Shown piece after piece: positions 27,468-43,817 of a DNA stretch of 64,000 nucleotides. The translations under genes and the position numbers were made by a program. Positions within the stretch are counted from its first letter, which is position 1. Each line of letters begins with the position of its first letter. The notes under the pieces are model-generated. The model searched no databases. It was given only the letters and a program-made list of their open reading frames with translations, and had not been told where the DNA came from. Origin of the DNA: Leptospira sp. (GTDB taxonomy: Bacteria; Spirochaetota; Leptospiria; Leptospirales; Leptospiraceae); the NCBI GenBank assembly GCA_034439575.1, contig JAWXAQ010000016.1, forward strand, positions 64,001 to 128,000. Reading direction: 5' to 3'.

Positions 27468-29332
27468 TGCCTACCATATACGAAGAGGCTTACTCTAATG
27501 GGTTCGGTGGTTTTCCGTTTGGCGGATTGATTTATTCTCAAGGTGCCATTCGCATTAATTACAATCTTAGAAACGATGGGAAAACGGATGATGATTTTTT
27601 ATCGTTCGGAATTGCAAATGGATCTTTCCTAGAATCATTTCCTATCGATGTACAGAATACAATTTTCCAAAAATTATCATTTGTTGTAAATAATGGAGGG
27701 AATTGCCAGAGCTTCAAGTTCTCACTCAATTCTCTTCCCGATGTTCCATTGCTTACTTATACTGAGTATGCTTTAAAGTTTGGATCCATTCCGCGATTCA
27801 AAGGATATATCACAAAACGACCTATCCCTGGTGAAGATGAAGATTTGAATTTTTCAGGTTATGGATTTTTCAAGAAGATCGAAAAAACAAAAATAAAAAA
27901 TCCAGATAATCATTTGATTCAAAGCGTAAGCCAATCAGGTACAACAATGACTTTGAATTTATTACCAGGTTCACTCGTTGCATCAGCAAAAGTTGGCTTA
28001 AAGATTGTAGTCAAAAATTGCAATGAATCTAAGAACAATGGAGTTTTCGAGATAACATCTAACGGAACAGCTACAATAGTTGTATTGAATCCTTCAGGTG
28101 TTACAGATTCGAGCATTAGCGGAGTAGTTTATATTCTACCAATCGAATGGACAGAATCAACTCGCATAGATCTGCTAATCAAAAAAACGCTCTCGATGTC
28201 ACTCACATCAAGCAATCAAGTTTTATACGATCCCTCTACAATCGAAGAAACAACAGGATTTCTTTCGGCAGGTGAAGTTAATTTTGAAGGAATGGAAATT
28301 GGTAAATTCTTCGATTTGATGAGGAAGTTTTTGCAAAGAAAATATTACATCGGGATAGATGGATACGGTAAAATATTCGTCCGTCAAATTCCTCTTCAAA
28401 TGATTCAAAAGCTTCACGCTGGATTTGATTTTCCATCTGGATCAATTAACACAGATGAGGAAGTTGCAGGGAATTTAATTACGGTAAATAAATCTGATTC
28501 TAAATCAGGTAAAAGTTCTGGTTCTTCGATCGCTGGAATTGCAAGTGATCCGACATCGGTTGCAAAGTACGGAGAACAGCCTTATAGCGAAGATATCCCA
28601 GGTCATCTTTCTGCTGATACTGGAAATTTATATGCAAATGCTCTTTTGATCATAATGAAAGATCCAATCATTCAAGGCGAGGCAAAGGATATGCCTTGGC
28701 GTTGGTATGATTTCGGTCTCTATGGTTATGTTACTAAAACAGATTTTTATCCATTCACAATAGAGGATTTCGACTCATTAACTAATTGGGTAACTGATGC
28801 AGAGATCACAAGATCGATCGTTAATTCAAAGTTAGTGAACGGTGCAAACAGCCATAAATTAGTATTAACTTCTGCTTCGGAAAATAAGGTTCATCGGAAG
28901 CCAATTTCGTTCCGGATGAATTCTGGAAAGAATATGTTTTTCTACATGTTCTCTAATGTAAAAATCAAAATCAGATATGGTTTTGGAACAGATTCTTGGA
29001 ACGAGAATGTATATGACTTCGAGACTTTCGAAGTCGATCGTTGGTTTCCCTACCGAGTTCAATTCCAAGGCCTCACCAAACAGATAAATCATATAGGATT
29101 TCAAATTCTTTCGGATATTGATGCTGAAGTATACTTAGATTTCCTAAATTGTTTTTCCTACACTGCCTTACATTATGAACTTCAATTGGATCAGGCAGAA
29201 TACATTATAGATAGTCACGAACGAAAAGTAACTTTGAAGTTTGGTGATCTAACTCGCAATCCTGGATTTGAGCAATATATTGCAGGGATCAAAGCACAAG
29301 CAGAAGTCGCAAAAATGATGGTAAGAAAATGA
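27467..29332 (+). CDS. Baseplate hub / Tal-like tail protein
   Basis: Position after Dit; DPTSVAKYG motif. Confidence 0.7.
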   Translation: MPTIYEEAYSNGFGGFPFGGLIYSQGAIRINYNLRNDGKTDDDFLSFGIANGSFLESFPIDVQNTIFQKLSFVVNNGGNCQSFKFSLNSLPDVPLLTYTEYALKFGSIPRFKGYITKRPIPGEDEDLNFSGYGFFKKIEKTKIKNPDNHLIQSVSQSGTTMTLNLLPGSLVASAKVGLKIVVKNCNESKNNGVFEITSNGTATIVVLNPSGVTDSSISGVVYILPIEWTESTRIDLLIKKTLSMSLTSSNQVLYDPSTIEETTGFLSAGEVNFEGMEIGKFFDLMRKFLQRKYYIGIDGYGKIFVRQIPLQMIQKLHAGFDFPSGSINTDEEVAGNLITVNKSDSKSGKSSGSSIAGIASDPTSVAKYGEQPYSEDIPGHLSADTGNLYANALLIIMKDPIIQGEAKDMPWRWYDFGLYGYVTKTDFYPFTIEDFDSLTNWVTDAEITRSIVNSKLVNGANSHKLVLTSASENKVHRKPISFRMNSGKNMFFYMFSNVKIKIRYGFGTDSWNENVYDFETFEVDRWFPYRVQFQGLTKQINHIGFQILSDIDAEVYLDFLNCFSYTALHYELQLDQAEYIIDSHERKVTLKFGDLTRNPGFEQYIAGIKAQAEVAKMMVRK

Positions 29333-30267
29333 CAATTAAATACGGTGATAGGTTTTCAGATTTCAGATATGATCCAATCGATCAGGCTTTAGTTCCCCAA
29401 GAGATTCAAGGCTCCGATGGATTCGATGGTTCAGATCCAAATGGCGAGTTTCATCAAGCTTTACTTCTTAAGGGAACAAATAATAAATATGGATTCTCTC
29501 CCATTGAGATGCCTTTTCGAGATACATCGATTCCAAATTCAGGAATTATCGTCTATGAAATTGACGATCCATTAACTAATGTTGCAATCGGTTCACCTTT
29601 AACACAAGTTCGTCCGCCTATTGGTTCCCAGCCTGGTCTGACCGAATACGCAGTTGATTTCAATAATCCAATTCCTTACTTAAATACTGGCCGTATCATA
29701 GTTAATTCAGCTAACGCAAATAAATACTATCGAATGCATCGTTACTTCGGAATGGGAGGGATCAATTCAGTTGCGAATACAATGGCAATTGAAGCAGCCG
29801 TTTTATCTACGAAACTATCACGTGATGGTTCACTTGCAATGACAGGTCCTTTAAATATGGGGACTCAAAAAATCACATCACTTGCGAATGGAGTTTCAGC
29901 TGGTGATGCTGTAAACGTTGGGCAAATTCCGTCATTGCTTTCTGGCTCTGTACAAAGTCTCAAAGGATGCGCTGAATATGTTTTGCCTCAAGCAAGTGAT
30001 ACAATAACAGACGATAAATATATTTACCAAATTCAAATGACTGGATCTGGAAGCGTTCCAGGTGGTCACATAATTGATATCACAGGAATGCCTATTACAG
30101 TTGGAAATGTGGTTTGGGTTTCCTTCCATCAACCTGCCGCCAATCCAGTTTCTCCAAATGTCGTTAAAATTCATGGAAATACTATAATTTCAACAACGAA
30201 CTCAGCACTAATTTTCGGCATAGCCTACAGAAATTTAGGTGGCTGGCTTTTCTATCAGGTTAACTAA
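29329..30267 (+). CDS. Tail fibre/spike-related protein
   Basis: KLSRDGSLAMTGPLNMGTQKITSLANG..DAVNVGQ fibre motif. Confidence 0.7.
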   Translation: MTIKYGDRFSDFRYDPIDQALVPQEIQGSDGFDGSDPNGEFHQALLLKGTNNKYGFSPIEMPFRDTSIPNSGIIVYEIDDPLTNVAIGSPLTQVRPPIGSQPGLTEYAVDFNNPIPYLNTGRIIVNSANANKYYRMHRYFGMGGINSVANTMAIEAAVLSTKLSRDGSLAMTGPLNMGTQKITSLANGVSAGDAVNVGQIPSLLSGSVQSLKGCAEYVLPQASDTITDDKYIYQIQMTGSGSVPGGHIIDITGMPITVGNVVWVSFHQPAANPVSPNVVKIHGNTIISTTNSALIFGIAYRNLGGWLFYQVN

Positions 30268-30268
30268 A

Positions 30269-30583
30269 ATGATTCCAGATTTTGTTAATTATAACTTCAA
30301 GAAGGGAACTGACTGGGAGATTCGAATCGCTGCTTCATACGCAGGGTTTGTTGGATTTTGCGATGCCAAAATGATCAACAACCCAAATCGTAAAATATCA
30401 GCTGAAGTGATTGTTGAAGCTGAACAAGTTTTAGTAAAATTTCCATATTCGATTACTACTGATGCGTTAGTTGGAGATTATATTTTCGACGTAGAATTGA
30501 ATTCTGGTGACTTAGGAGATCCCTATTCTCAGAGTTTTGACACGTTCACAATAGGAAGAGGAAAGATTAGAGTTACATTATGA
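30269..30583 (+). CDS. BppU-like small baseplate protein
   Basis: KKGTDW...GDYIFDVEL...GKIRV. Confidence 0.55.
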   Translation: MIPDFVNYNFKKGTDWEIRIAASYAGFVGFCDAKMINNPNRKISAEVIVEAEQVLVKFPYSITTDALVGDYIFDVELNSGDLGDPYSQSFDTFTIGRGKIRVTL

Positions 30584-32481
30584 GCGAGCCGAAAGAAAAA
30601 ACACTGAAAATTTACAGAGGGGATACTACAAGAGAAGTATTCTATGTAGAAAATATTGATCCAGCTAATTTTAGTTCTATTACCATAAGATTGGAAGCAA
30701 AGAGAAGCGATAACAATCAGTATGTAATCGGAATTGATGTTTTAGAATCTGATATCGGAAATGATTGGGAAAATAATCTTGTGCAGGTAAATTTCTCGCC
30801 TGCTTCGACTCAGAACATACAAGGAGAAGATACAATTCTCCTTCGCTATGATTTGGAAGTCACGAGAATCACACCGGATGGAACAGAGGTAAAGAGTGAA
30901 TATAATGGTTCCATTGTACTCATAGCAGATGTTACCGTAGGAAATCCAGTTGTAACTCCAGAAACTCTCGTCGATATTTACAATAATTTAGTATCAACGA
31001 ACGACGCAAAAGGTGCATCATATATCGGTGTTAAATCTTCGATTTGGTTTGGGATTGCAACTACGGTTCAAGGTGCCTTGCAATGGATTAAAGAAAACTA
31101 TTTAGAATTTACTGGAACATTTTCAGCGAATAAACTTCTAAAAAGTGGATCATCCCTTGCGAAAGCAACAGTCTCAGGAATTTCAATTTCAGGAGATGAC
31201 GAACTTTCTGGCGTCAAATCAATTACTGTTACAGATCCACCTAGCGACGCAAACCACCTAACTAATAAGGATTATGTAGATGATGGGCTCGCACTAAAAG
31301 AAAATCTTAGCAATAAATCTACAAACACTGCTCTCGGTGGATCTGATTCTCTTTACCCGTCACAAAATGCAGTTAAGGTTTTTGTAGAGAATTCAATCAG
31401 TGCGGCATCTGTAGGATTTCTTAAAGACCGTGGAAACTATGATGCTTCAAGTAATCTATTCCCTTCGACTGGTGGCAGTGGACCAAGCGGTACTATCGAG
31501 AAGGGAAACCTCTGGACAATTAGCGTTGCTGGAACTCTCGGAGGAACGGCTGTTACGATTGGTGATGTAGTTCGTTCTCTTGTAGATTCCCCTGGCCAGA
31601 CTTCTTCCAATTGGGCAATCGGAGAAAATAACTTTGGCTATGTTGCGGAAAACTCTGCAAACAAAAATCAAAACAGTGGTTATGCTGGATTAGATTCTTC
31701 AGGAAACTTCGTTCAAAATTCTGACAAACTTCCAGAAGGATCGACGAATTTATTTTTCACAACTGCAAGAGCAATAGCTTCGGTATTAACCGGTTATTCA
31801 GCAACAAGTGGAACGATTTCAGCGAGCGATTCAATCTTGCAAGCAATCCAAAAAATTGGCTATTTCATAGCCAATATCGGGTCATCTATTCTGAATCAAG
31901 CGCTTACTGGTCTATCACTTGCAACTGGTGGAACGATTTCTTCATCTGATTCGATTGTCGTTGCCTTTGGAAAACTTCAAAAACAAATCACTGATCTAGT
32001 TTCTGGCTCGGTTCCAGTCGGAACATCAATTGAATTCTCAGGTAGTACAATTCCTTCGGGATTTCTTGAAGAGGATGGATCTGCCATTAGCAGAAGTACT
32101 TATTCAGATTTGTTTGCTGCTATAGGGACAACTTATGGTGTAGGCGATGGATCCACAACTTTCAATATTCCAGACCATCGTGGAAATTCTTCACGAGGCG
32201 TTGGAACAAGCTCAGGCTATGTGCAGAATGTAACAATAACTTTAGGTCAGCGCATTGATGACGCATTGCAAGGTCACTTCCATGCACAAAGATATGCAGG
32301 AAGATTTTTCTCTGGTTCGGGGCCATACACAACAGATGATTTCGACACTTCTGCTGGAGGAACACCAGCATTCAATAATAGAATTCGTGAAGAAATAACG
32401 AATGGAACTGATGGAACTCCGAGAACTGCCAATGAAACACGAGTTAAAACAATTGGTAAGAAATTTGCTATAAAATATTAG
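30580..32481 (+). CDS. Tail fibre with BppU-like N-terminus and tail-collar domain
   Basis: VPVGT...PSGFLEEDGSAISRSTYSDLFAAIGTTYGVGDGSTTFNIPDHRG. Confidence 0.9.
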   Translation: MSEPKEKTLKIYRGDTTREVFYVENIDPANFSSITIRLEAKRSDNNQYVIGIDVLESDIGNDWENNLVQVNFSPASTQNIQGEDTILLRYDLEVTRITPDGTEVKSEYNGSIVLIADVTVGNPVVTPETLVDIYNNLVSTNDAKGASYIGVKSSIWFGIATTVQGALQWIKENYLEFTGTFSANKLLKSGSSLAKATVSGISISGDDELSGVKSITVTDPPSDANHLTNKDYVDDGLALKENLSNKSTNTALGGSDSLYPSQNAVKVFVENSISAASVGFLKDRGNYDASSNLFPSTGGSGPSGTIEKGNLWTISVAGTLGGTAVTIGDVVRSLVDSPGQTSSNWAIGENNFGYVAENSANKNQNSGYAGLDSSGNFVQNSDKLPEGSTNLFFTTARAIASVLTGYSATSGTISASDSILQAIQKIGYFIANIGSSILNQALTGLSLATGGTISSSDSIVVAFGKLQKQITDLVSGSVPVGTSIEFSGSTIPSGFLEEDGSAISRSTYSDLFAAIGTTYGVGDGSTTFNIPDHRGNSSRGVGTSSGYVQNVTITLGQRIDDALQGHFHAQRYAGRFFSGSGPYTTDDFDTSAGGTPAFNNRIREEITNGTDGTPRTANETRVKTIGKKFAIKY

Positions 32482-32488
32482 GAAGAAA

Positions 32489-33205
32489 ATGAAAGCATAT
32501 CAAACAGACAATAACGGATATTATATTGGAGAAGTTGATTGCCAAAAATCTCCATTGGAACCTGGAAAATTTCTAATTCCAAGGGGGGCATTCACAGATG
32601 AACCACCAGAATTTGGAGAGAATGAAATTCCTTTCAGAGTTGGAGAAAGTTGGGAAATCCGACCAAACTTTTCAGGAAAGATTTACTTTAACAAGGAAAC
32701 AAGAGTTCCTAAAATATTTGAAATCGGTGAACTGTTCGATTCCAATTTTACCGATTCCGTTCCAATTGAAAACGAACCTTACCAAAAACATATAAATGGT
32801 GAATGGGTTATTGATGAAGATTTGAAACTGGTTTCCAAAAAAGAAATTTTTCATAATAAATTAAAAACCAAATTTGAACAGCTTACAATGGAATATAGAT
32901 CAGTTGTAGAAGTTGAGAATATTGAATGGGATTCAGGACAGAAGTATCTTTCCAATATTGATACTTTGATTTCAGTCTATTCTAAAAATCCAAATCAAAT
33001 CGGGATCCCTTTTTGGAGAGATGCTAATAATGATTTTCAAACAGTAACAATTGAACAGCTAACATCAATTAGAAATGAAATCGAAAAAGATATGTTCCAG
33101 GAAGGAGTGAGACTCTACGAAATCAAATGGATAAAAGAAAATGAAATTCAAAATTTAGAATTAGCAGATTTGGATTCATACGACATTTCGGAAGGTTGGG
33201 ATTAA
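32489..33205 (+). CDS. Tail fibre assembly protein (DUF4376-like C-terminus)
   Basis: SPLEPGKFLIP...T.EPP; WRDANN motif. Confidence 0.75.
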   Translation: MKAYQTDNNGYYIGEVDCQKSPLEPGKFLIPRGAFTDEPPEFGENEIPFRVGESWEIRPNFSGKIYFNKETRVPKIFEIGELFDSNFTDSVPIENEPYQKHINGEWVIDEDLKLVSKKEIFHNKLKTKFEQLTMEYRSVVEVENIEWDSGQKYLSNIDTLISVYSKNPNQIGIPFWRDANNDFQTVTIEQLTSIRNEIEKDMFQEGVRLYEIKWIKENEIQNLELADLDSYDISEGWD

Positions 33206-33206
33206 T

Positions 33207-33902
33207 ATGGAAAATTTAACTTTCTGGTCATTAATTCATAAGCATTGGGAATCAGTGATTTTTATTGTGATTCCTTTATGTTTTATTCTTCTCGGTGTTC
33301 TTCTATCTATTTTGCTTTGGATAATACGTGTTTATCGAATATCTGTAGCACTAAGTGGTTTCAAAATTTCTCCATCCAAACACGATCCTAAATATTTGGT
33401 TCGAATGTCGAAACAAGACCAATTTATTTATTCGACACTTGGAAAATTAAATCAGTTCTATAACGCCAATGTATCCGCAATTTTCCAATTTCACAATGGT
33501 GGAGAATTCAAAAATCAGAACTCGATTCTAAAATGGACACTCACTCATGATAACCCCGAACCAGGAAATGTTAGCTTCCACCTAAAGGAAATTAAATGGA
33601 CGAATGTTCTAGTATCTCAAGCGAATGAATGGATTGGGGTAACGCTGCTTAAGAAACTGTGGTTCTGCGATTTCGATTCACTTCCTGAAAATTCAAATTG
33701 GAGAAGGTATTTCGTGAGTGCTGACTTGCGTTCCGGTCTTTTCTATTTAGTTGAGGGGGAATACGGTCCTGAATTCGTCCTTGCCGTTTTCTGGGATAGT
33801 ATCTCGGACACCGAACACACTATGAATTCAATTAAAGAGTATGGTGATGCCATCGCTTCACTCTTGCGAGACGTTAAATTTCTTACGGAGGAAAACGAAT
33901 AA
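33207..33902 (+). CDS. Membrane protein with one TM and a GAF-like domain (T4-holin-like candidate)
   Basis: N-terminal TM; IFQFHNGG; first gene of lysis region. Confidence 0.5.
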   Translation: MENLTFWSLIHKHWESVIFIVIPLCFILLGVLLSILLWIIRVYRISVALSGFKISPSKHDPKYLVRMSKQDQFIYSTLGKLNQFYNANVSAIFQFHNGGEFKNQNSILKWTLTHDNPEPGNVSFHLKEIKWTNVLVSQANEWIGVTLLKKLWFCDFDSLPENSNWRRYFVSADLRSGLFYLVEGEYGPEFVLAVFWDSISDTEHTMNSIKEYGDAIASLLRDVKFLTEENE

Positions 33903-34579
33903 TGTTAATTGGTAAAATTGAAGCTAAAATTATTGCACCAGATAATCCACAGCGAACGGATCAAGCATGGGAATGGGAAGCTATTCCAACACCAGAGCAG
34001 AAAAAAAAGTTAAATGGTGAACCTTTCCTTATTAAGTTAGGACCGAATTCTCAGTGTGTCGGCAATACTCATCAAGACTTGCTCTATGGAGTTGCCAAAG
34101 AGTTCCCAGCAAAGATCGGTCTTTTGGCAACTGAAGATACTTATGAATATTACACTTGGATCAATTCATATCTTTATCATTTAGGTAAGCCGTATGATGC
34201 CAGCCACTTGAAATACTTCCAGGTGCACGTTGATTATTTTAACCATGTTTTTAAAATTCACGGAATCCCTGTTAAAGCTAAAGGTATCGAGATTCCAAAG
34301 AAAGAACAAACTTTGGAAACCGTCAAGTTTTGGATCGAAGAAACAAAACGCCAAGTTGGACTCGGGACTTTTCTAACAGGCTCCGGAGGTCACTGGATGC
34401 GCGGTGACACTATTGAAGTGCATGATGATCACATGGGGCTAGGTGGAAACGACCCATTCGGCACAAGTCCTTATAAATCAAAGACACAGAAAACAAGAGT
34501 TAGAGTAGTTTATAAGGATAAATTCCTAGAATCAAAAACGATTCGAAGAATTACAGTTTTAGAAGATCACAAATGGTAG
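33902..34579 (+). CDS. Candidate endolysin, papain/C39-like cysteine peptidase
   Basis: NSQC...GGHW...NDPFG order of Cys-His-Asp; lysis-cassette position. Confidence 0.5.
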   Translation: MLIGKIEAKIIAPDNPQRTDQAWEWEAIPTPEQKKKLNGEPFLIKLGPNSQCVGNTHQDLLYGVAKEFPAKIGLLATEDTYEYYTWINSYLYHLGKPYDASHLKYFQVHVDYFNHVFKIHGIPVKAKGIEIPKKEQTLETVKFWIEETKRQVGLGTFLTGSGGHWMRGDTIEVHDDHMGLGGNDPFGTSPYKSKTQKTRVRVVYKDKFLESKTIRRITVLEDHKW

Positions 34580-34586
34580 GTTAAAT

Positions 34587-35015
34587 ATGGAAGAGATTTT
34601 TATAGAAGTTTTAAGGGGAGTATTCGCATGGGCTGGCGAAACGTTTCGTTCTTACGTTCGGCTCGGTTATATCCTATTTATTTTCGCTGTCTGTATTTAC
34701 AGATTTGAATTCAGTGATTTAAGAGATTTTTACCGAGATAAGGAAAATAAAAAGTATAGCAGAAGCCGCTTTACTCTATTTGTTTCCTTCCTAGCTGGTA
34801 TAATTTTCGTTACGTTAGATTATCTAAATATCCCTGAAGGAATTCACAAAAAGGAAATCATTAAGATTATGATAGTTTCTCATATTGCGCACTTTATTTC
34901 GTTCGTAGTATTGAAATTTTCTTATGATTACCTAATTAAATTTATAATGTCGGGGACATTGTTTAAAATTATTTTCAGGAGGTCATTAGATGAGCCTGTT
35001 GAACCTACTCAATAA
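34587..35015 (+). CDS. Holin-like membrane protein
   Basis: About three hydrophobic helices in 142 aa. Confidence 0.55.
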   Translation: MEEIFIEVLRGVFAWAGETFRSYVRLGYILFIFAVCIYRFEFSDLRDFYRDKENKKYSRSRFTLFVSFLAGIIFVTLDYLNIPEGIHKKEIIKIMIVSHIAHFISFVVLKFSYDYLIKFIMSGTLFKIIFRRSLDEPVEPTQ

Positions 35016-35214
35016 CCTAACAGATTCAGGAAAGAAAGCGTTCTATATTGCGATTTTTATATTAATAATAATCTGCATCCTGTATTTATTTTCGGCAGAA
35101 ATTTCCAAAGGATGGAAGAGGGCATATGATGAATTTAGCAAAACTAATTTTAGTGATGAGTCTGAGTATGATTCAAATTGCGTGCCAGAGCCAGGCGAAC
35201 CTTGCAAGGAATAA
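34990..35214 (+). CDS. Single-TM protein, i-spanin candidate
   Basis: N-terminal TM, two C-terminal Cys, overlaps lipoprotein gene. Confidence 0.5.
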   Translation: MSLLNLLNNLTDSGKKAFYIAIFILIIICILYLFSAEISKGWKRAYDEFSKTNFSDESEYDSNCVPEPGEPCKE

Positions 35215-35539
35215 CCTAGCGGTTGTTTGTTCTGGATCATTTGAGTCAACAAACCGCACAATGCAGCTTCCTCCAGAGGCGAAAGTTCTAGAATCGGAAA
35301 GAAAGAAGTTCGGGTCTTCCGTTTTTGTCCCAGCTAGCAGATATAATGCTTTGCTTCGACACGCAAAGGAACTTGCTGAATGTGGGAAGGGTAGTCAGTG
35401 CTTGATTGAACATACCGAATACGAGCGAGATTGTGAAGCCGAATGGGCTGAAAGTCTGGAATCTAGTTTTATTCCAGGGTTTCTTCGCTTTCGTTCTTCA
35501 TGCAAGATACCTAAACCTCAATGCGAAATAGATATCTAA
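35126..35539 (+). CDS. Cys-rich lipoprotein, o-spanin candidate
   Basis: Signal MMNLAKLILVMSLSMIQIA-C. Confidence 0.55.
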   Translation: MMNLAKLILVMSLSMIQIACQSQANLARNNLAVVCSGSFESTNRTMQLPPEAKVLESERKKFGSSVFVPASRYNALLRHAKELAECGKGSQCLIEHTEYERDCEAEWAESLESSFIPGFLRFRSSCKIPKPQCEIDI

Positions 35540-35543
35540 TTTT

Positions 35544-35786
35544 ATGCTTAAAGAGAGAAAAGTTAGAGCTGTAAATATCGGAAGGGAAGAGGTTTTTTAT
35601 TTCTATTTAGATATGGAAATCCCTTTCCTTGGAAAATTCGAAATTAAACTCAGCAATCCAGACATTAGGCGTTACGCAGTTACCCACCTTGACGAAGACA
35701 AAAGCCTAATCATGCGTTTTAATACATATGAAGAGGCAGAAAATTGGTGTGGTGAGATGGGCTATGAAGTTGACGATAGATGGTGA
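35544..35786 (+). CDS. Hypothetical protein
   Basis: 80-aa ORF at end of late operon. Confidence 0.55.
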   Translation: MLKERKVRAVNIGREEVFYFYLDMEIPFLGKFEIKLSNPDIRRYAVTHLDEDKSLIMRFNTYEEAENWCGEMGYEVDDRW

Positions 35787-35792
35787 TTGATT

Positions 35793-37172
35793 TTATTTAA
35801 TTAAATTTGTTGGATCTGTATTTAAAATCCATTCTACAAAATGCCATTTGCCTTTTTTATTGAGTGCTTTCACCTGGACAACAGTCTGATATCGTTTGCG
35901 AATCTCTTCATCTAATTCTTTCGTATGAAGAATGGATATGATTTCGCCTTCAGAAGTACTAATTTTGAATTTATGATCTGGTTTAGTTAACCATCCAGAA
36001 GGTTCACCTAATTCGCCTATGAATACCGCCTCTTTCCCTTCTTCTTCATTATAATTCTCCAAGTATGCTTTAACCATGGACATTTTCCTTCTATCTTCTG
36101 GTTTCAAGGTTATTGAAACACTTGATTTAGGTAATGAAACTGTAATACTTTCTATGCCATCTTCAGGAATAGGGGATAAAGATTGAAGGCTAGCTGCAAT
36201 TTTTGATGCCAAGCTAAAATCAGCTTTAATTGAATCTATAAAATCTCCTGCCTTATCTTTAGCTTCAATTCGTTTTTTTGAATATAAATGTTTAACTGAA
36301 TTTAAACTCGTCTCTAAACGTTCCTCAAATATACTATTATCTTTTTGAGCTTGATTCTCTTCAAAATCAACTAACAAAACAGTGCTACTTGTCCCAACTC
36401 CGATAAGCATAGCCGTTGGTTCAATTGTAGAATCAAGTGAATTCAGCTTGCTCTTAATTATATCTGAAATATTTTGAAATACTCGAGATAATGTTGAAAT
36501 TTTAACTTTGCCTTTGCTAATTCCAACAGTTGGTAATTCTATTGACAGAGAATGCGATTGTTTTTGTTGCTTTGCAAATCCAGATTCTTCATCATATTTT
36601 CTTTGTAATTTTTCTGCCAGACGGACATTTTCTTCCATTTCTCTTTTTCTTAAACTAGGAAATTTAACATATAGGGGTTCCATTCTTGCAAGATGCTCTC
36701 TAATCGCAAATAGAGTCTCAGCAGTCGAAAATTCTTTTCCTAAATCTAAGCTTCCCCAATCTGTCATTTCATTAACCTCTATTGCATCCCCTTCTAGTTC
36801 GAATACTGGCTCGCAAAGAGTGGATTCTTTTGCTTTTCGAAAAGCTAGAATTACAGAATTTCTGTCATTTTCTAATATCAAACTATTCCAGTAAATGCTT
36901 CTCGATTGCTTACCTAAAAATCCTTCTTCATTTTTTTCGAATTCAGTAATATTTTTAAAAACTGGACTAAGATATAAAAATTTAGCCTCATCTCTATTGT
37001 TTCTATACCAGAAAATAAATACTGATATTGCTCCTTTCTTTTTCCATACCTCGAAATGAGCTAAAACTAATCTCTGAAAACTTAACCCAAGCTTAATTTC
37101 ATTGGAATAAACAATAAAGCTCTTTCGATTTAAAGTTTTGACCTCTAAGCCATGGATAAAATTTAGTTGCAT
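35793..37172 (-). CDS. Hypothetical accessory (moron) protein
   Basis: 459-aa ORF antisense to the late operon. Confidence 0.75.
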   Translation of the reverse strand: MQLNFIHGLEVKTLNRKSFIVYSNEIKLGLSFQRLVLAHFEVWKKKGAISVFIFWYRNNRDEAKFLYLSPVFKNITEFEKNEEGFLGKQSRSIYWNSLILENDRNSVILAFRKAKESTLCEPVFELEGDAIEVNEMTDWGSLDLGKEFSTAETLFAIREHLARMEPLYVKFPSLRKREMEENVRLAEKLQRKYDEESGFAKQQKQSHSLSIELPTVGISKGKVKISTLSRVFQNISDIIKSKLNSLDSTIEPTAMLIGVGTSSTVLLVDFEENQAQKDNSIFEERLETSLNSVKHLYSKKRIEAKDKAGDFIDSIKADFSLASKIAASLQSLSPIPEDGIESITVSLPKSSVSITLKPEDRRKMSMVKAYLENYNEEEGKEAVFIGELGEPSGWLTKPDHKFKISTSEGEIISILHTKELDEEIRKRYQTVVQVKALNKKGKWHFVEWILNTDPTNLIK

Positions 37173-37219
37173 ATGGTAAATAATTTCGACACTTTAACGC
37201 CCATTACTTTAGGAAAATA

Positions 37220-38095
37220 TTAGCTTTCTCCAATATACTCATCCAATCCTTTAATTTTTTTCAATACCTGGAACTCAGATCTTTTAGATTTAAGGGCAAT
37301 TTTTGCGTATAACTCGGGACCACCTTTAGGAAATCCTTTCGCAAAATCAGCTATTTCTTTCTTCGCATTCTCTTCTCGTTTGATGAACTTTTTGAGCTCG
37401 TCCTCTTTTTCCTTTTCGATTTTTCTCAAGATATTCACTCTTTCCCACCAGGAAAGGATTTGCTTGTTATAAGATTGAATTTGATCATCTGTTAGTTCAG
37501 GATATTTCTCGTTCTTATTCGCTTTTTTAATCGCTTCTAGATCACGATCTATTTGATAAAGAGTCCATTGCGGTATTGCCTCATGTATCACGTGTCTGAT
37601 GGCTTTTCGCAAGTTTCGAGGATCCGTTTCAGCTTTACCTGAGGTATAGTCTCCACCTTTGTAGTTTTTGATTAAAGCTGGAATTCCCCATTCCCGAATC
37701 ATTATCTCTTGGCGTTCTTCTGGCCAATAACGTTGATTAGTATCGTTGTCTCCATAGATTGCCTCGCGGTAAGTTGAATCATAATCAGATTCTAAGAAGA
37801 CAACTGGAACCATGAAATTTTTTGGAAGCTTTTTCTTTTTAATCCCTTCGATAACAGCCGTCCATCGACGTCTTCCTCTTAGGATAAGTAGTTTGCCCGA
37901 TTTCTTGTCTTTGTATACTAATAATGGTTTATCGCCCCAGATTCCATTTTTCCAAACTGATTCGCAGAACGACCGCCATTCTTCCTTTTGTTCTGGCGTA
38001 CGAGGGGGGCGAGCTGCATTCTTTGGATCTGGTCTAAGAGATATTGCTTTCTTTTGGGTAACAACGGAGGAAATTTTTAACTTAGAATTACTCAT
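37220..38095 (-). CDS. ParB-like N-terminal domain protein
   Basis: LRPDPKN...SVWKNGI...PLLV...ILRGRRRWTA. Confidence 0.7.
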   Translation of the reverse strand: MSNSKLKISSVVTQKKAISLRPDPKNAARPPRTPEQKEEWRSFCESVWKNGIWGDKPLLVYKDKKSGKLLILRGRRRWTAVIEGIKKKKLPKNFMVPVVFLESDYDSTYREAIYGDNDTNQRYWPEERQEIMIREWGIPALIKNYKGGDYTSGKAETDPRNLRKAIRHVIHEAIPQWTLYQIDRDLEAIKKANKNEKYPELTDDQIQSYNKQILSWWERVNILRKIEKEKEDELKKFIKREENAKKEIADFAKGFPKGGPELYAKIALKSKRSEFQVLKKIKGLDEYIGES

Positions 38096-38200
38096 CTTAG
38101 CCTAAATATCGGAATCATCTTCTAAATTCAATACGATTCGAATTCAGAAGATGAGACATAACGATCTGCTAGTCTTCTTTTGATTTGATTCTAACGCGAA

Positions 38201-38443
38201 TTAAGGCATTCCATATTGAACCCATTCTTCCATAGATTGAATCATCACCCTAAGGGAAGCAATGCGGTATTTTATCTTCAAACGAAGATCAGAAAGAACC
38301 AAGGACGGAAACGGCTTGATAATGAACAAACGTCTTTTGCCACTTGGGAAATGCCGAAATCGAAATTCGCTGTTATTGATTTGTATCACCATGAAGGTTT
38401 CACCCTTAATGATGATTAGGTTATTTGTTAGATTCGTATACAT
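38201..38443 (-). CDS. Small basic hypothetical protein
   Basis: AAAGGAG RBS upstream on minus strand. Confidence 0.5.
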   Translation of the reverse strand: MYTNLTNNLIIIKGETFMVIQINNSEFRFRHFPSGKRRLFIIKPFPSLVLSDLRLKIKYRIASLRVMIQSMEEWVQYGMP

Positions 38444-38484
38444 AGATTTGTATCTCCTTTACTTAAATTAGTAGGAGGTTTTGA

Positions 38485-38533
38485 ACCTGTTTTCAGGTAA
38501 TTTGAGACAAAATTTCATTTTAAATTGAAATTT
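38485..38533. promoter_or_regulatory. Two palindromes in a divergent intergenic region
   Basis: ACCTG-N4-CAGGT (38485-38498); AAATTTCA-N8-TGAAATTT (38510-38533). Confidence 0.45.
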
Positions 38534-38547
38534 CCCGATAAACTAAC

Positions 38548-38823
38548 ATGAATCAAAAAAAATATGCGAACCAAACCGATGAAGACCAATTTGTTCTTAC
38601 AAATGATGCAGAAGAATACATAAAATATCGAGACATCCCTTTGTGCCAGGTATGCAATCGACTAATCTCTGATATTCAAATGTTTCGGGGAACAGGAAAA
38701 CAAGGAATTTGGTTGGATAAGGTATTTTTCCCATTTATAATTTTCGAATTCACTTGTCATGGTTCATCATTAAAATTTAAAACGTTTGGTGGAGACATTG
38801 CCAAGGTGGAAGAATCAATATGA
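38548..38823 (+). CDS. Small putative zinc-binding protein
   Basis: CQVC...CH; ATGA-coupled to SIR2-like gene. Confidence 0.6.
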   Translation: MNQKKYANQTDEDQFVLTNDAEEYIKYRDIPLCQVCNRLISDIQMFRGTGKQGIWLDKVFFPFIIFEFTCHGSSLKFKTFGGDIAKVEESI

Positions 38824-39833
38824 AAACTCTATACTTGTTTGGTGCAGGTGCTAGTGCAGATGCAGTTCCAGTTGTCGGAGGTATAACTTTTTTCTGGGAT
38901 AAGTATTTCAAAAAGGAAACAGCAAAATTTCATAAAAGCGTGTATAAAAAAATTGATTCGCCTTTATTAGAAGATATAGACAAATTAATTGATGAGACTA
39001 AAGACTTCGGAACTCCAGATGTTTATGCAAAGTCAGTAGCTCTATCAAAAGGAATTTTTTCAAAAGAATATCGAATTGTTAAGACAGCTTTAAATTACTT
39101 TATAATATTATGCTATCTAGTAAATGAAATAGATAAAAGATATTTTTCTTTTTTTTCCGCACTTGTAGATTCAGAAAATAAAAATTCACACATATTGCAT
39201 AAAGATGTATTTATCGCAACTTGGAATTATGACTTTCAAATAACAAAATCCATTTCTATTTTGTTGAACAAAAATTTAACTGATATAAATCATTTGCTAT
39301 ATAATAAGTTATTTAGAATAAATGGTTACGCTGGTTCTTTGAGAGGAACCGTAGATAACAGAGAAAGTTTTCGTCTAACACAACCTGAAAATGAAAACGA
39401 TAATTATATTTTTAGATCAAGTTTTCCAGCAAGCATAGTTAAGGATATTAATGATTCATATGCTCGCATAATGGAAGATAAAAATTTAATATATCACAAC
39501 ATTTCCTTTGCCTGGGAACCACTAAATTTTAATTTAGAGAGACAACAGATTTTTCCTTTTCTAGATCAAATTAAAGTTTTAGTTGTAATAGGTTACTCTT
39601 TCCCAACCTTTAATAGATTTATTGATAAAGAATTAATCTCCAAGATGATAAATCTTGAAAAAATTTACATTCAAGATCCGAGTGATAGTATTGAAAACAG
39701 AATTATTCCATTCCTTGATATAAGAATGCCAGTCTATAAAATATCCAGGGATTCAGAACAGAAAAGTTATTACGATATTGAACATATAAAACACCCTGAC
39801 CAATTCTTTATCCCTCCAGAACTCGACCAGTAG
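38820..39833 (+). CDS. SIR2-like (NADase-type) domain protein, probable anti-phage effector
   Basis: YLFGAGAS, ATWNYD, RINGYA, VVIGYSF. Confidence 0.75.
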   Translation: MKTLYLFGAGASADAVPVVGGITFFWDKYFKKETAKFHKSVYKKIDSPLLEDIDKLIDETKDFGTPDVYAKSVALSKGIFSKEYRIVKTALNYFIILCYLVNEIDKRYFSFFSALVDSENKNSHILHKDVFIATWNYDFQITKSISILLNKNLTDINHLLYNKLFRINGYAGSLRGTVDNRESFRLTQPENENDNYIFRSSFPASIVKDINDSYARIMEDKNLIYHNISFAWEPLNFNLERQQIFPFLDQIKVLVVIGYSFPTFNRFIDKELISKMINLEKIYIQDPSDSIENRIIPFLDIRMPVYKISRDSEQKSYYDIEHIKHPDQFFIPPELDQ

Positions 39834-39848
39834 AAAATCTTTGCCCTC

Positions 39849-39972
39849 CAATATCTCTAGCTAGAGTGCGACTTTGAGGGCTTCCCAATATCGCGTACAT
39901 GCACGCGACATGCCAGCTCCAATATCGCTAGCTGGAACGCGATTTCAATATCGCTAGTTAGAGTGCGATATT
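39849..39972. repeat. Four 23-bp iteron-like quasi-palindromic repeats
   Basis: CAATATCGC-N10-GCGA consensus at 39849, 39886, 39920 and 39946 (first copy reads CAATATCTC). Confidence 0.85.
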
Positions 39973-40132
39973 ATATAGAAAAGAACAATGAAAGGTACAA
40001 CCTTAGTGAAAAAAGAAGAGAAGATCGCTGAATGCGATAATATAGAATTCTAGTATAAAATTCGAATTAACTAGGAAAATTGAGATTGCCGAATGTATTG
40101 ATTAAGTCGAATAGTATAGAAGAGTTAAAAAT

Positions 40133-40858
40133 ATGACAATTCCAGAAGCAGAAAGGAAATCTAAGTATATTTTAGATAATTATTTATTTTCTATTTTTGC
40201 AAGAAAGGATGATTTTACAATTCATAGCCATAGACGTGAAATGCTAAAAATTGTAAATTCTGGTAAGGCGACTCCTGATGATTGGTATGCCCTTGCTATT
40301 TTAGAATTCAATTTAGGTAACTATTCTGAGTCGATGAAAACCTTGAAAGGTTTATCTACTGTATCACCAGAGTTCCGAAATATCTATGCTTATGCTCAAC
40401 TAACGCTTGTTCAAAATTCAATTTCTATTTCCAAAAGTGAATCTGCAATTTTGAATGAATTCTTTACAGGGACAAATTTAATTAAGCCAGATAAATTACT
40501 TTATCAAATGATAAAGAATTCTATTCAATCTAACAATTCTCGGTTTGGTTTGAAAAAAGATATTATTATCAAAGTTGAATATTTCAATCCTAAGAATTTT
40601 AAATTAACGTCTGGTCCATTTGAATTTTCTGAAAATATCGAACCGTCAAATGAATTGGATCATGGATCAAACATTGGAAGTGTATTTGATTTGAATCTTC
40701 AAATCTATATACTAAACAATGGATTAGAAGAAAAACATAGAAAGTTTTTAATTGATTATTTGGACGAAAATGAAATTGATCAACTAATTACCGAAAATAC
40801 AGCAGAAGATTTAAAAACAGAACGTGACTATTCTGAATATACTCTATTGAATATTTGA
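40133..40858 (+). CDS. Hypothetical protein with a TPR-like helix pair
   Basis: DWYALAILEFNLGNYSESMKTL. Confidence 0.65.
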   Translation: MTIPEAERKSKYILDNYLFSIFARKDDFTIHSHRREMLKIVNSGKATPDDWYALAILEFNLGNYSESMKTLKGLSTVSPEFRNIYAYAQLTLVQNSISISKSESAILNEFFTGTNLIKPDKLLYQMIKNSIQSNNSRFGLKKDIIIKVEYFNPKNFKLTSGPFEFSENIEPSNELDHGSNIGSVFDLNLQIYILNNGLEEKHRKFLIDYLDENEIDQLITENTAEDLKTERDYSEYTLLNI

Positions 40859-40871
40859 TAAGTATTTTTCG

Positions 40872-41105
40872 ATGATAGTCCGGATCAGCCCTCATATACG
40901 TGAACTATTCGATAAACTCAAAAATGAAGATAGAAATTTCAGATTTAATCAGCAGAAAATATTGGATAAAGTAATATTTGATAGGTTCTTAAATAAGAAA
41001 TTCAATTTTAGGTTTGATACAACAGAACATGGACCTTTTAAAATTTTTTTAGAAGTGACACGAGACGGAATTTTCATTTCTGATTTGCGACAAGATATTC
41101 CTTAA
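40872..41105 (+). CDS. Small protein with a weak RelE/ParE-like pattern
   Basis: MIVRISPHIRELFDKL start, beta-rich C-terminus. Confidence 0.45.
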   Translation: MIVRISPHIRELFDKLKNEDRNFRFNQQKILDKVIFDRFLNKKFNFRFDTTEHGPFKIFLEVTRDGIFISDLRQDIP

Positions 41106-41179
41106 ACACCGTTTGGGAATCTCATAAATGGTAAAATTTGCACTTGTACTTTTTTCTTTATTCTGAAAAGTAGGTTAAT

Positions 41180-41220
41180 AAAAAACGAGCGGCTCTTACG
41201 AACCGCCCGATTTTAGTTTT
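41180..41220 (-). terminator. Intrinsic terminator, possibly bidirectional
   Basis: Minus strand CGGGCGGTTC-GTAA-GAGCCGCTCG followed by T6. Confidence 0.75.
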
Positions 41221-41250
41221 CGCATATTTAGAAGGGGTCTAACTGTCAGG

Positions 41251-41379
41251 CTATTTCCCTTTCTTCTCTTTCTGAGTTAACGCAGAAGCCGCCACGGACT
41301 TTTGCGCTTGAGTGCTTTTCGGGTTGCTAAGAATCTTGGCAGCCTGAGAAGCAACTTTCTTTGAAGTTTCTTTACTCAT
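41251..41379 (-). CDS. 42-aa basic peptide
   Basis: AAGGAGGTGA RBS; MSKETSKKVASQAAKILSNPKSTQAQKSVAASALTQKEKKGK; own terminator. Confidence 0.7.
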   Translation of the reverse strand: MSKETSKKVASQAAKILSNPKSTQAQKSVAASALTQKEKKGK

Positions 41380-41404
41380 AATATTCACCTCCTTGATCAT
41401 ATAA

Positions 41405-41569
41405 ATGAATCCAAATAAGCCAACTGATCCAGTCGGTGAATTATGTCGTATTATGCTAGAATTCAAAAATGAGAAAATCGGTCTAGTCGATTCGGATAAT
41501 TATGAATATAATGTAATCGGAAGAAATGGACAAATTAAACTAACTTGTGATTATGTGAGTAAAGACTAA
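41405..41569 (+). CDS. Possible 54-aa protein (not in ORF track)
   Basis: MNPNKPTDPVGELCRIMLEF...; no clear RBS. Confidence 0.3.
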   Translation: MNPNKPTDPVGELCRIMLEFKNEKIGLVDSDNYEYNVIGRNGQIKLTCDYVSKD

Positions 41570-41587
41570 CAGGTTTAGGTTCCAAAT

Positions 41588-42514
41588 ATGAAATTAATTC
41601 AGTTTTTCACTTCTCTTTTGCTTTTGTTATTTTTGGGCTGTTACACTGTTAAAGAATCTAAAAGAGAGCCTATACCTTTACCTGAAGCTGAAAAAGTTCT
41701 TTTATCAACTAATGAAAATTTGATTAAAGAAGAAGAAAAGAAAATCAAAGTGTATAGATCCGGTGATAATATAGTTTTTGAAATTGTAATCGAAGAAGTT
41801 TCGAAGAAGATGATTTCGAAAAAATATTTCGGCAAAGAGAAAGTTGAATACGAGACAGAGAGTACTTGGTCTAGAGTAATGGATGAACCTCCAAGAGCTA
41901 ACGGATGGGAAAGGCTTTTTGTTTATACTGGACTCGCAACATGGGGAGCAACTGCCATCCCAGTTTGGCTTTTAGAACTTCCGACACTGCCTTTTCGATT
42001 AACTCCAGATATTATTGAAAAACCAATAGAGCAAATAGAAACAAAAGAAATATCTCGAGTTAAATTGAAAGTAAAGGATCCTTATATAATTAATACTAGG
42101 TGCTTTGCTCTTATCACTCACCTTGGGAAAACTACAATCCCAGCAAGTGGCTTCGTAAATTCTTTGGGAATTAAAACAACTCAAAGAGTTGCTTTTGTTG
42201 AAGGAGAAAACGGCGAAGCTTTATCTGAAGAAGAGGAAATTGATTTTAGCTCAATTCTCACAAAGAAAGAAAAAGATATCATATCCGAACGTCAAAATAA
42301 TCCAGAGATTCCAAGATTGGTTTATGATTCACTCAGTTCAGGAGATGATATGGATACTATCATTTCATGGTTAGGTGAAGGAGAATCCATTCTCGAAAAC
42401 ATAGGATCAGGATTTGATATCATTTCTTACAGATATCGAAATCGGGACAAGTCAACAGTTCAGCTAATATTTATGAATGGCGAACTCAAAACCAAGCAAT
42501 GGTTTTCAAATTAA
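41588..42514 (+). CDS. Lipoprotein (prophage cargo)
   Basis: MKLIQFFTSLLLLLFLG-C; SmpA/BLIP-like C-terminal pattern. Confidence 0.7.
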   Translation: MKLIQFFTSLLLLLFLGCYTVKESKREPIPLPEAEKVLLSTNENLIKEEEKKIKVYRSGDNIVFEIVIEEVSKKMISKKYFGKEKVEYETESTWSRVMDEPPRANGWERLFVYTGLATWGATAIPVWLLELPTLPFRLTPDIIEKPIEQIETKEISRVKLKVKDPYIINTRCFALITHLGKTTIPASGFVNSLGIKTTQRVAFVEGENGEALSEEEEIDFSSILTKKEKDIISERQNNPEIPRLVYDSLSSGDDMDTIISWLGEGESILENIGSGFDIISYRYRNRDKSTVQLIFMNGELKTKQWFSN

Positions 42515-42545
42515 GAAATTTAAAAAATTAAAAGGAACTCACAAC

Positions 42546-43238
42546 ATGAAAAAACTTATCTTTATACTCGTAACGTTTTCTATTATTCTAAACTGCGCAT
42601 CTTCCAACAACGGCGAAAAGAAAGCGGACACCGAAAATGAGACTAAGATCCGTAACACGGAAGTATGGGCGGATTTGAAAGATCTAAATACTGAAAAAAA
42701 ATATACTACAAGTGGATATTCTATAAATCGAAAATCTAAGATTCAAAATTTCTTATTAATGTCTAATTTGAATATTAATTTGGAACAGGTCGAAATTACG
42801 TTCCTTGAAACTAATTCTTTTTATACTGTGCCAGTTGCGGCCTTCAGCATAAACAATAAATCACGTTACGAATTAATTAACTGCTTAGGAAAATTTATCG
42901 AATGGGACAAAATCGCTATTCTAAATAATGATAAAGTAGAAAAGGAAATTTGCTCAATAGATTACAGTAGTGATCCAGAAAGATCACCTTTACTTCAGGT
43001 GAATGGTAAGTTTAAAATAACCTTATTTACAGATTCCCCTAAAAAAAACGCAGCTAGATTTGATTTTGGAGAAATCCGTGATCCAAACGATGATTCTAAA
43101 TTAAGAAGATTTGATTTTCATTATTTAAATAAAAATGAAATCATAGGATTAATGAATTCCCTTACAGATAAAGAAATATCCAAGCAAGTGTTCGCTTACA
43201 TTAAAAAAGAACGAGCTACCCAAAGGAGATACAAATAG
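42546..43238 (+). CDS. Lipoprotein (prophage cargo)
   Basis: MKKLIFILVTFSIILN-C spirochaetal lipobox; AAAGGA RBS. Confidence 0.75.
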   Translation: MKKLIFILVTFSIILNCASSNNGEKKADTENETKIRNTEVWADLKDLNTEKKYTTSGYSINRKSKIQNFLLMSNLNINLEQVEITFLETNSFYTVPVAAFSINNKSRYELINCLGKFIEWDKIAILNNDKVEKEICSIDYSSDPERSPLLQVNGKFKITLFTDSPKKNAARFDFGEIRDPNDDSKLRRFDFHYLNKNEIIGLMNSLTDKEISKQVFAYIKKERATQRRYK

Positions 43239-43275
43239 AAAATATTCACTTTTTCTCCTTTTCCTCTTTTTTCTC

Positions 43276-43303
43276 TTGACACAAATTAAGCTCTCGCTAG
43301 AAT
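43276..43303 (+). promoter_or_regulatory. Near-consensus sigma70 promoter
   Basis: TTGACA-N16-TAGAAT, followed by AAAGGAGGTG RBS. Confidence 0.65.
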
Positions 43304-43329
43304 AATGTCATCCTAAAAGGAGGTGAACG

Positions 43330-43518
43330 ATGGCGACTAAAGATTTAGCTTATATGAAAATCAGCAAAGATCTAGTTAAACAGGCAAATGTTTCCTATGC
43401 GAAAGTTAAAAATGATATTTTAACTCAAGAAGGAATTGTTACCGAAGCATTAGAATTCTTTGTAGAAAATTTTCCGAAAGTCGCCGAGAGCCAAATTAAA
43501 AGAAAACAATCGGCTTGA
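43330..43518 (+). CDS. 62-aa ribbon-helix-helix-like DNA-binding protein
   Basis: Beta strand AYMKIS then two helices (KDLVKQANVSYAK; QEGIVTEALEFF). Confidence 0.6.
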   Translation: MATKDLAYMKISKDLVKQANVSYAKVKNDILTQEGIVTEALEFFVENFPKVAESQIKRKQSA

Positions 43519-43527
43519 GGCGTTAAG

Positions 43528-43557
43528 CCTTCCCATAGTTGAATTGTTATGTCTGAT
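43528..43557 (+). other. dif-like Xer site A with 8-bp central region
   Basis: CCTTCCCATAG-TTGAATTG-TTATGTCTGAT. Confidence 0.6.
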
Positions 43558-43628
43558 TAGAAGTATCAAAGAAACCTTTCCCTGAGCCTTGTAAAGGGCT
43601 ACGAGACAGAATTTCGGGAATAACCTCT

Positions 43629-43656
43629 ATGCGACATAAGATTGATTATGGGAAGT
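43629..43656 (-). other. dif-like Xer site B (28 bp, 6-bp central region); candidate chromosomal dif or attR
   Basis: Minus strand ACTTCCCATAA-TCAATC-TTATGTCGCAT fits the 11-6-11 dif architecture (CATAA...TTATG core). Confidence 0.8.
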
Positions 43657-43676
43657 GCCATATTGCGTCACGTAAT

Positions 43677-43730
43677 AATCTACTCCAAATGCTAGTCGTT
43701 GCATCATCTAAGAATCTACTCCAAATGCTA
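43677..43730 (+). repeat. 18-bp perfect direct repeat with 36-bp period
   Basis: AATCTACTCCAAATGCTA at 43677 and 43713. Confidence 0.85.
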
Positions 43731-43817
43731 ACCTGAGACGACTAGACTTTCCCATGGTCTTTCACATAACAGTATGATAACCTAAGTATTTTTAGATGCC
43801 TTTTGGAGAAAAGTAAC

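Follow-up and report, generated by a model that had tools for sequence, protein, structure and literature searches.

How a tailed prophage with no recognisable integrase comes to end at a dif-type site of its host is the question raised by the stretch of DNA analyzed here (the window), 64,000 nucleotides of Leptospira sp. contig JAWXAQ010000016.1 (C16:64001-128000) from a 4.11-Mb genome of 37 contigs that was assembled from microbial-mat metagenomes. An earlier reading made from the letters alone (the sequence-only reading) had placed two inverted dif-like sites, A and B, at the right-hand end of the prophage and had proposed that a large tailed phage integrates at dif by means of host XerC and XerD, through a hairpin or cruciform attachment site (attP) or a cer-like site. 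Its description of the sites was accurate, in that their positions, the layout of B as two 11-bp arms about a 6-bp centre (11-6-11), the 71-bp spacing, the inverted orientation, the 9/11 match of each arm of A to the corresponding arm of B, and both stems in the intervening DNA are all present in the sequence. The reading favored here, to which a probability of about 0.72 is attached, is that a 49.3-kb siphovirus-like temperate phage entered the dif site (dif2) of the secondary chromosome of a Leptospira-like host by Xer-type recombination, that is, as an integrative mobile element exploiting Xer (IMEX). Of the original proposal, an integrase-less tailed prophage placed at dif by host Xer is upheld by the junctions, the GC skew and the relatives, while the hairpin or cruciform attP built from inverted A and B is not.

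The first step is the identity of site B, which reads ATGCGACATAA GATTGA TTATGGGAAGT on the plus strand and ACTTCCCATAA TCAATC TTATGTCGCAT on the minus strand. A scan of the genome for the pattern CATAA-N6-TTATG returned 22 sites, and the perfect arms ACTTCCCATAA and TTATGTCGCAT occur three times, once for each candidate replicon, with the centre TCAATC on C16, TGTATA on contig C22 and TCAACA on contig C13. Of 41 genomes sampled across the order, 35 have identical arms, among them all 24 other genomes of the genus, at two to four copies per genome. Where relatives are assembled into few contigs, one dif lies mid-way along a multi-megabase contig and another on a contig of 264-276 kb; the centres on these small contigs are GATTGA, GATCAA or GATTCA, and the complete 28-mer of site B, exact or one base off, is found on them. 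In phage-free relatives only site B is present, and site A is not.

The setting of the site on its contig points the same way. C16 is 363,499 bp long, and a second, independent metagenome assembly yields a contig of 363,642 bp with the same junction. A ParB gene at 274 kb coincides with the minimum of the cumulative GC skew, and the maximum lies at ~95-105 kb with the prophage included; when the prophage is omitted the maximum moves to the 5-kb bin containing the junction, and the 50-kb stretches on its left and right have skews of +0.036 and -0.034, so that the flip in skew looked for at this locus is indeed there. Because the arms are conserved across the genus, the skew switches here and ParB lies opposite, site B is assigned as the dif of this replicon (dif2), and its locus as the terminus of a small chromosome-like replicon. 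Since C16 thus holds both an origin, marked by ParB and the skew minimum, and a dif terminus, it is probably a complete secondary chromosome; a comparison of its ends found no terminal overlap. A second ParB-domain gene is located on C16 at 247 kb.

The second step is the left boundary, where a scan with relaxed matching located a directly oriented dif-like copy, attL, ~5.6 kb to the left of the window. This copy is identical to site B (attR) at 24 of 28 positions, and the identity is uninterrupted over the 18-mer TATGCGACATAAGATTGA, which consists of a T, the complete arm ATGCGACATAA and the centre GATTGA. The genome has two copies of the 18-mer and no more, at a distance of 49,281 bp, and the matching arm-plus-centre 17-mer is single-copy in all five of the five relatives with a GATTGA dif. 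The second arm of attL matches TTATGGGAAGT at 7/11 positions, with AAAA in place of the four inner bases TTAT. To the left of attL lies one copy of the 12-mer GTTACCGATGTG, which occurs three times in 4.1 Mb and always 29-44 nt left of a dif-type site, and ~70 bp to the right of attR make up the R1 flank, which is kept beside dif sites genus-wide. Phage DNA of 49.3 kb thus interrupts a native cassette of left motif, dif and right flank. The bacterial attachment site (attB) would then have been a complete dif2, and attP would have been a double-stranded, one-armed mimic of dif2 with a perfect arm, the centre and a degenerate second arm. The integrated form is not an assembly artefact, as attR is bridged by contigs in 4/4 sequencing runs and in the 363,642-bp metagenome contig, two metagenomic viral contigs (IMG/VR) carry the same phage with the same attL, and all five assemblies with the phage show it integrated.

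The third step concerns the enzymes. The sequence-only reading had seen no integrase in the 43 kb of prophage visible to it, and likewise none was found in the 5.6 kb of prophage to the left of the window, at the left boundary or elsewhere on C16. A six-frame search of the genome with PF00589 (tyrosine recombinase) gave five matches, none of them on C16, and PF00239 (serine recombinase) gave none in the genome. Pfam scans of 31 + 33 prophage open reading frames (ORFs) recognised 19 + 9 families but no recombinase or transposase catalytic domain, the only transposase-named match being a weak HTH_Tnp_1 (E 0.00025) alongside other helix-turn-helix families, and no integrase or excisionase is named among the PHROG matches listed (25 of 36 and 25 of 58 families). 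Near the right end, the two largest proteins of unknown function show similarity to DUF6575 and BamE/BLIP rather than to recombinases, no recombinase-like protein is encoded in the single reverse-strand module (Table 1), and the genes adjacent to the junctions are ORFs of 145 and 62 amino acids without a family plus a KilA-N/ANT antirepressor. The host, for its part, encodes XerD, which at 371 bits clears the TIGR02225 cut-off of 330, and an XerC-like protein that scores 324 bits, 11 below the cut-off of 335, with the XerC model as its best match.

Taken together, the location at the host dif, an attR that regenerates a functional-looking dif, a hybrid attL that shares one arm and the centre with it, a phage in which no recombinase was found, and a host that encodes XerD and an XerC-like protein make Xer-type integration the best explanation of the locus. 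Host XerC and XerD would recombine double-stranded attP with dif2 at the borders of their common 6-bp centre, and the exchange would rebuild an intact dif beside the right flank of the host at attR, so that chromosome-dimer resolution would be kept, while the crippled hybrid at attL should guard the prophage against looping out whenever dif is used. Xer catalysis, the assignment of the arms and the protective role of the degenerate arm are here inferred from sequence, and the assignment of the arms depends on which half of the Vibrio dif consensus binds XerD. With ATGCGACATAA as the XerD-type and TTATGGGAAGT as the XerC-type arm, 17/22 positions agree with the Vibrio consensus, versus 13/22 for the opposite orientation (PMC12715192). 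The prophage genes and the GC skew of the element (+0.079) run with the left replichore, so that its polarity converges on attR.

That the element is a tailed phage is apparent from its gene content. Families of phage proteins occur throughout the element, whose leftmost 5.6 kb lie outside the window, and phage genes fill positions 1-43238 on the plus strand apart from the reverse-strand module. The hallmarks of tailed phages (Caudoviricetes) are present as a terminase, a portal, a P22-type capsid and tail genes, and the structural matches include phrog_145 (portal), P22_CoatProtein, TMP_3, SPP1_Dit, Phage_tail_terminator_6 and Collar. The tail is of the siphovirus type, judging from the tape-measure, SPP1_Dit and tail-terminator matches. 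The division of the locus into phage genes on the left and host genes on the right, as the sequence-only reading had drawn it, holds: terminase, P22 coat, tape measure and collar stand on one side, and a lipoprotein and a DgcR-type diguanylate cyclase on the other. The cyclase lies at the cut-off of a Leptospira-named NCBIfam model. A homologue of the lipoprotein (TIGR04452) is located 0.2-2 kb from dif in 5/8 of the relatives' loci and is the sole syntenic neighbor found; the genes of the left flank were sought near dif2 of the relatives and were not found there. As for other integration targets, no tRNA or tmRNA genes were found in the window. An Rfam search of 43000-44000 returned no known RNA family.

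Table 1. Features of the prophage and its junctions, in coordinates of the window unless C16 is named.
Feature	Position	Strand	Details
Hybrid site, predicted attL	C16:58348-58375 (window -5652 to -5625)	same orientation as site B	ATGCGACATAA GATTGA AAAAGGGAAGC
Prophage, part within the window	1..43627	+	whole element 49,281 bp, starting at attL left of the window
Large terminase subunit	13844..15280	+	Pfam Terminase_6N/6C; phrog_38, 9.5e-93; best phage match 42% identity
Major capsid protein, P22-type coat	17692..18834	+	PF11651, 5.7e-30; relatives in viral contigs
Tail tape-measure protein	23854..26679	+	PF20155, 2e-23
Sole reverse-strand module	35793..38443	-	459-aa protein (phrog_28569, DUF6575-like lead), 291-aa weakly ParB-like protein, 80-aa ORF
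Last phage ORF, 62 aa, no family	43330..43518	+	ends 9 bp before site A
Site A, phage-borne Xer-like site	43528..43557	+	CCTTCCCATAG / TTGAATTG / TTATGTCTGAT; 8-bp spacer; inverted relative to site B
L2-like motif TGTAAAGGGCTACGAG	43590..43605	+	ends 23 nt short of the dif arm; single-copy in the genome
18-bp segment common to attL	43628..43645	+	predicted crossover segment and phage-derived half of attR, from sequence comparison
Site B, predicted attR and dif2	43629..43656	+	11-6-11 layout; arm match and conservation in relatives
R1 flank of dif	43657..43735	+	two ~32-nt direct repeats 36 bp apart (43663-43694, 43699-43730)
Host lipoprotein gene, 128 aa	44780..45166	-	TIGR04452 Leptospira lipoprotein family; conserved neighbor of dif2

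Several points weigh against Xer-type integration by the phage. The genome is derived from a metagenome, yet both junctions recur in independent assemblies. A very divergent recombinase may be present among the many unannotated prophage ORFs, three further tyrosine recombinases encoded in the genome (on contigs C11, C20 and C7) could act in trans, and no factor of the DUF3653 (XafT-like) type occurs among the Pfam families of the 64 prophage ORFs. Contigs of the four runs over 42900-44300, at 4-9x depth, contain the integrated form only, with no joints or loose ends at the core, and an exact scan for the phage-side junction gave no match among viral contigs and a single match among metagenome contigs, which was again the integrated form; neither an excised circle nor an empty site was seen in these contigs and scans. 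The nearest genomes examined have at most 72% DNA identity to the host, and for this reason the empty site is reconstructed from dif cassettes of paralogous and orthologous loci and not from a sister strain. Every copy of the phage was recovered from microbial-mat metagenomes that are related to one another, so that the copies amount to a single natural event.

Some of the same points would be expected if a conventional integrase had made the insertion and merely happened to use dif2 as attB, the enzyme having since been deleted, which would leave a defective prophage, or being one of the three additional tyrosine recombinases, acting in trans. These non-Xer genes, the unannotated ORFs and the absence of excision products from the contigs of the four runs all suit such an origin. 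However, the identity of attL and attR comprises exactly one Xer arm and the 6-bp centre, and the next arm is still dif-like at 7/11 positions, which for an unrelated integrase would be a coincidence; there is no gap for an integrase module beside either attachment site; and PF00589 is likewise missing from all five capsid-related phage records searched, three of which are 98-100% complete (CheckV). An integrase that was lost or acts in trans is on balance unlikely.

The relatives of the phage bear on another alternative. Searches for close relatives integrated elsewhere came up empty among 50,697 phage records, where terminase identity reaches 42% at most, among plasmids and among 156 genomes of the order, where the capsid reaches no more than 29%, and two scans of genome contigs returned no match and one match, the latter a 42-kb contig of an unrelated metagenome-assembled genome. 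Seven viral contigs encode capsids that are 55-61% identical, and in the three of these compared over their full length, similarity to the phage is confined to the structural module; no Leptospira dif pattern was found at up to three mismatches in the viral contigs of this capsid group. These three relatives (G158, G159 and G160), integrase-less tailed phages from isolate assemblies with capsids 60% identical, keep an Xer-like site of the form ACTTCCGATAA-N6-TTTGGTC(T/A)CAT. The site forms an island of conservation between diverged flanks and is followed by the palindrome TGAACATTTGTTCA. In two of these relatives 2/6 central bases differ, compared with one of ~370 flanking bases, which at a regional divergence of ~3% is only suggestive. 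G159, which has 123-bp terminal repeats, may be episomal.

Such records raise the idea of an extrachromosomal phage-plasmid that uses Xer-like sites to resolve its own multimers. The integrated copy would then be a cointegrate that Xer makes with dif2 now and then, and not the product of a strategy dedicated to lysogeny. In keeping with it, the isolate relatives are stand-alone records without an integrase, one with terminal repeats, and they keep the Xer-like site; a dif-type site is present on all replicons of the genus, even the small ones; there are ParB-like matches in the phage; and site A, with its recognisable arms, has an 8-bp centre within the 6-8-bp range of the overlap region of cer/psi-type plasmid multimer-resolution sites (PMC6744903). 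Yet the centre and one arm of attP equal those of dif2 while the other arm is degenerate at four inner bases, a design that suits stable integration and is poor for resolution of attP by attP, and for which the gonococcal genetic island offers a comparable case (PMC6744903). Pfam scans of the prophage ORFs recognised no ParA or plasmid replication family, the relatives have nothing but the structural module in common with the phage, and the phage is integrated in each of the five assemblies that carry it. A life as a phage-plasmid therefore appears quite improbable beside Xer-type integration as a temperate phage.

The region between sites A and B is best seen against the surroundings of dif in the genus. 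Every dif, on all replicons, lies within a conserved cassette of ~170-200 bp, in which the left flank is either L1, two direct repeats of GTGT(A/T)ACC(C/G)ATGTG, or L2, TGTAAAG..TGTAAAGGATGTACGAG, and the right flank is either R1, with two direct repeats of ~32 nt, or R2; all four left and right combinations are seen. In some cases (loci L025 and L036) the cassettes of the large and the small chromosome are near-identical within one genome, and the flanks look like accessory or exchangeable modules. The possibility that the L2-type flanks of the relatives are themselves the ends of similar prophages was considered and dropped: no phage homologues were found beside 28 dif loci, none of the five GATTGA genomes has a second copy of the arm-plus-centre 17-mer, and in five TACTAA genomes the only extra match was one with a single mismatch at a conserved place on another contig.

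Site A was compared with a whole-genome background. A scan for the arms over 4.1 Mb, on both strands and with spacers of 6-8 bp, gave 30 matches at 17 or more of the 22 arm positions, and ten sites reached 18/22, namely the three perfect sites, attL, site A and five background sites. With five such background sites, the expected number of matches within 150 bp of any of the four genuine sites is ~0.0015, and site A is therefore unlikely to be due to chance. No counterpart with fewer than three mismatches exists in 40 other genomes of the genus and the relatives carry an L1 or L2 flank at its place, which argues that site A is phage DNA and not host DNA. One look-alike on contig C7, 1.2 kb from a small tyrosine recombinase gene, was set aside as chance since it lies inside a coding frame and has three mismatches. 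The phage also seems to carry part of a host-type dif flank in addition to half a dif, for between A and B lies a motif resembling L2, the core of which, TGTAAAGGATGTACGAG, is found 23-26 nt from dif at 9/23 distinct dif sites of relatives. The motif could have been captured from a host or be needed for the reaction. Site A is possibly a cer-like site with an 8-bp centre; as a guess, it and the L2-like motif may act as accessory sequences modulating the exchange, or may form a site of cer type at which phage multimers are resolved.

The sequence-only reading had drawn its hairpin from CTXphi, whose attP consists of two inverted dif-like sites that fold in single-stranded DNA. The present locus resembles it in having a pair of inverted Xer-like sites beside the junction, under 100 bp from each other, and no integrase. 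Both stems, TTCCC(T)GA/TCGGGAA and AGCCTT/AGGGCT, exist, the second being part of the minimum-energy fold of 43524-43660, and in this fold A pairs with B on either strand. In the prophage form, however, the fold is marginal (z -1.8 to -2.0, with 8-11 of 200 shuffled sequences folding as well), and the predicted attP form, which is the one that must integrate, folds like shuffled DNA (z -0.6 and -0.4; 56 and 64 of the 200 shuffled sequences do as well). A forked hairpin that pairs site A with B or with attP, in single-stranded or cruciform DNA, and offers XerC a dif-like duplex is hence very unlikely, for all that the inverted geometry, the ~70-bp spacing and the A/B fold recall CTXphi, given that the 8-bp and 6-bp spacers do not pair, that we know of no single-stranded circular stage in a terminase-packaged tailed phage with a double-stranded genome, and that the junctions are explained without site A by double-stranded exchange at a plain 18-bp one-armed attP.

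Xer-type integration at dif has closer parallels elsewhere. One-armed attP sites have been described in double-stranded tailless phages (PMC12715192), reportedly between 2023 and 2025. Like these, the present element is double-stranded, has no integrase, occupies dif in a host with several chromosomes, carries a one-armed mimic and regenerates dif at one junction. Unlike these, which are below 16 kb and have no tail, it is a tailed phage of 49 kb in a spirochaete, Pfam scans of its ORFs revealed no terminal gene pair of the rstR/xafT type, and it has the extra inverted site A 71 bp away. The tailless double-stranded phages belong to a documented range of Xer-hijacking elements that also takes in filamentous phages, satellites and genomic islands, and in the same account tailed phages are treated as integrase-dependent (PMC12715192).

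Degenerate arms are familiar as well. In TLCphi, a satellite of Vibrio cholerae, the XerD arm is degenerate and the phage factor XafT (DUF3653) activates XerD (PMC6744903). The present element resembles TLCphi, which integrates and excises by host Xer as is proposed here, in having a double-stranded site with one attP arm off the dif consensus, and it differs in being a tailed phage rather than a filamentous satellite, in that its degenerate arm is assigned as XerC-type, and in that no DUF3653 was found among its Pfam families. In the gonococcal genetic island the degenerate arm likewise stands at the far junction, where it is thought to prevent Xer-mediated loss (PMC6744903); there, however, the element is not a virus and the arm is of the XerD type, whereas here a virus is concerned and the arm is assigned as XerC-type. 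Site A shares with cer/psi sites two recognisable arms, an 8-bp spacer and a place on a mobile replicon, and it departs from them in that it is not at the junction and that no accessory-protein sites are known for the host.

IMEXs are well known, and what this case would add to them is the tailed phage, the spirochaete host, the secondary chromosome and the extra site A. A literature search, with subscription journals and supplements outside its coverage, found no described IMEX of a tailed phage, and one for the dif of Leptospira found nothing relevant. If the interpretation is correct, the strategy of lysogeny by host enzymes extends to the dominant class of phages through a full-size tailed phage, and a class of prophages escapes prophage finders that search for integrases and tRNA targets. 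The dif sites of the replicons of this group are now defined, and the segment carrying attP may serve as a means of inserting DNA in single copy, in a group for which genetic tools are scarce. A broader idea, offered tentatively and more doubtful than not, is that tailed phages of Leptospira-like spirochaetes have a recombinase-free lysogeny module composed of DNA signals only (a one-armed dif mimic, a copy of L2 at its native spacing and the inverted site A), which would recruit XerC and XerD and set the direction of the reaction, and that the host dif would be an extended element of ~200 bp (L1/L2, R1/R2 and direct repeats), shuffled among replicons and served by an undescribed accessory system.

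The other two perfect-arm sites of the genome have features of their own. The TGTATA site at C22:106491-106518, presumably the dif of the main chromosome, lies ~30 kb before the local maximum of the cumulative skew of that contig (135-140 kb), and there may be an inserted element or an inversion beside it. The TCAACA site on C13 (6500-8520) has a hybrid site 1.6 kb away, and the pair brackets an ORF of 402 amino acids. In the hybrid the TTATGGGAAGT arm is intact and has an R1-like flank, the other arm is degenerate and a copy of the R2 flank is nearby; the pair is possibly a small IMEX or a remnant of one.

Within the prophage, the early region (1-13000 of the window and part of the DNA to its left) encodes SbcC/SbcD-like nuclease subunits, a Holliday-junction resolvase and DUF5131, as well as a Dam-like methylase fused to a phage GNAT domain, DUF488, YopX and two matches to Ant-type antirepressors; Pfam scans of the prophage ORFs recognised no CI-type repressor. 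Toward the right end, 38000-43300 is AT-rich (GC 0.32-0.33) and contains ORFs without phage families, among them one for a protein of 308 amino acids with a BamE/BLIP-like C-terminal domain, and this segment looks like lysogenic-conversion cargo.

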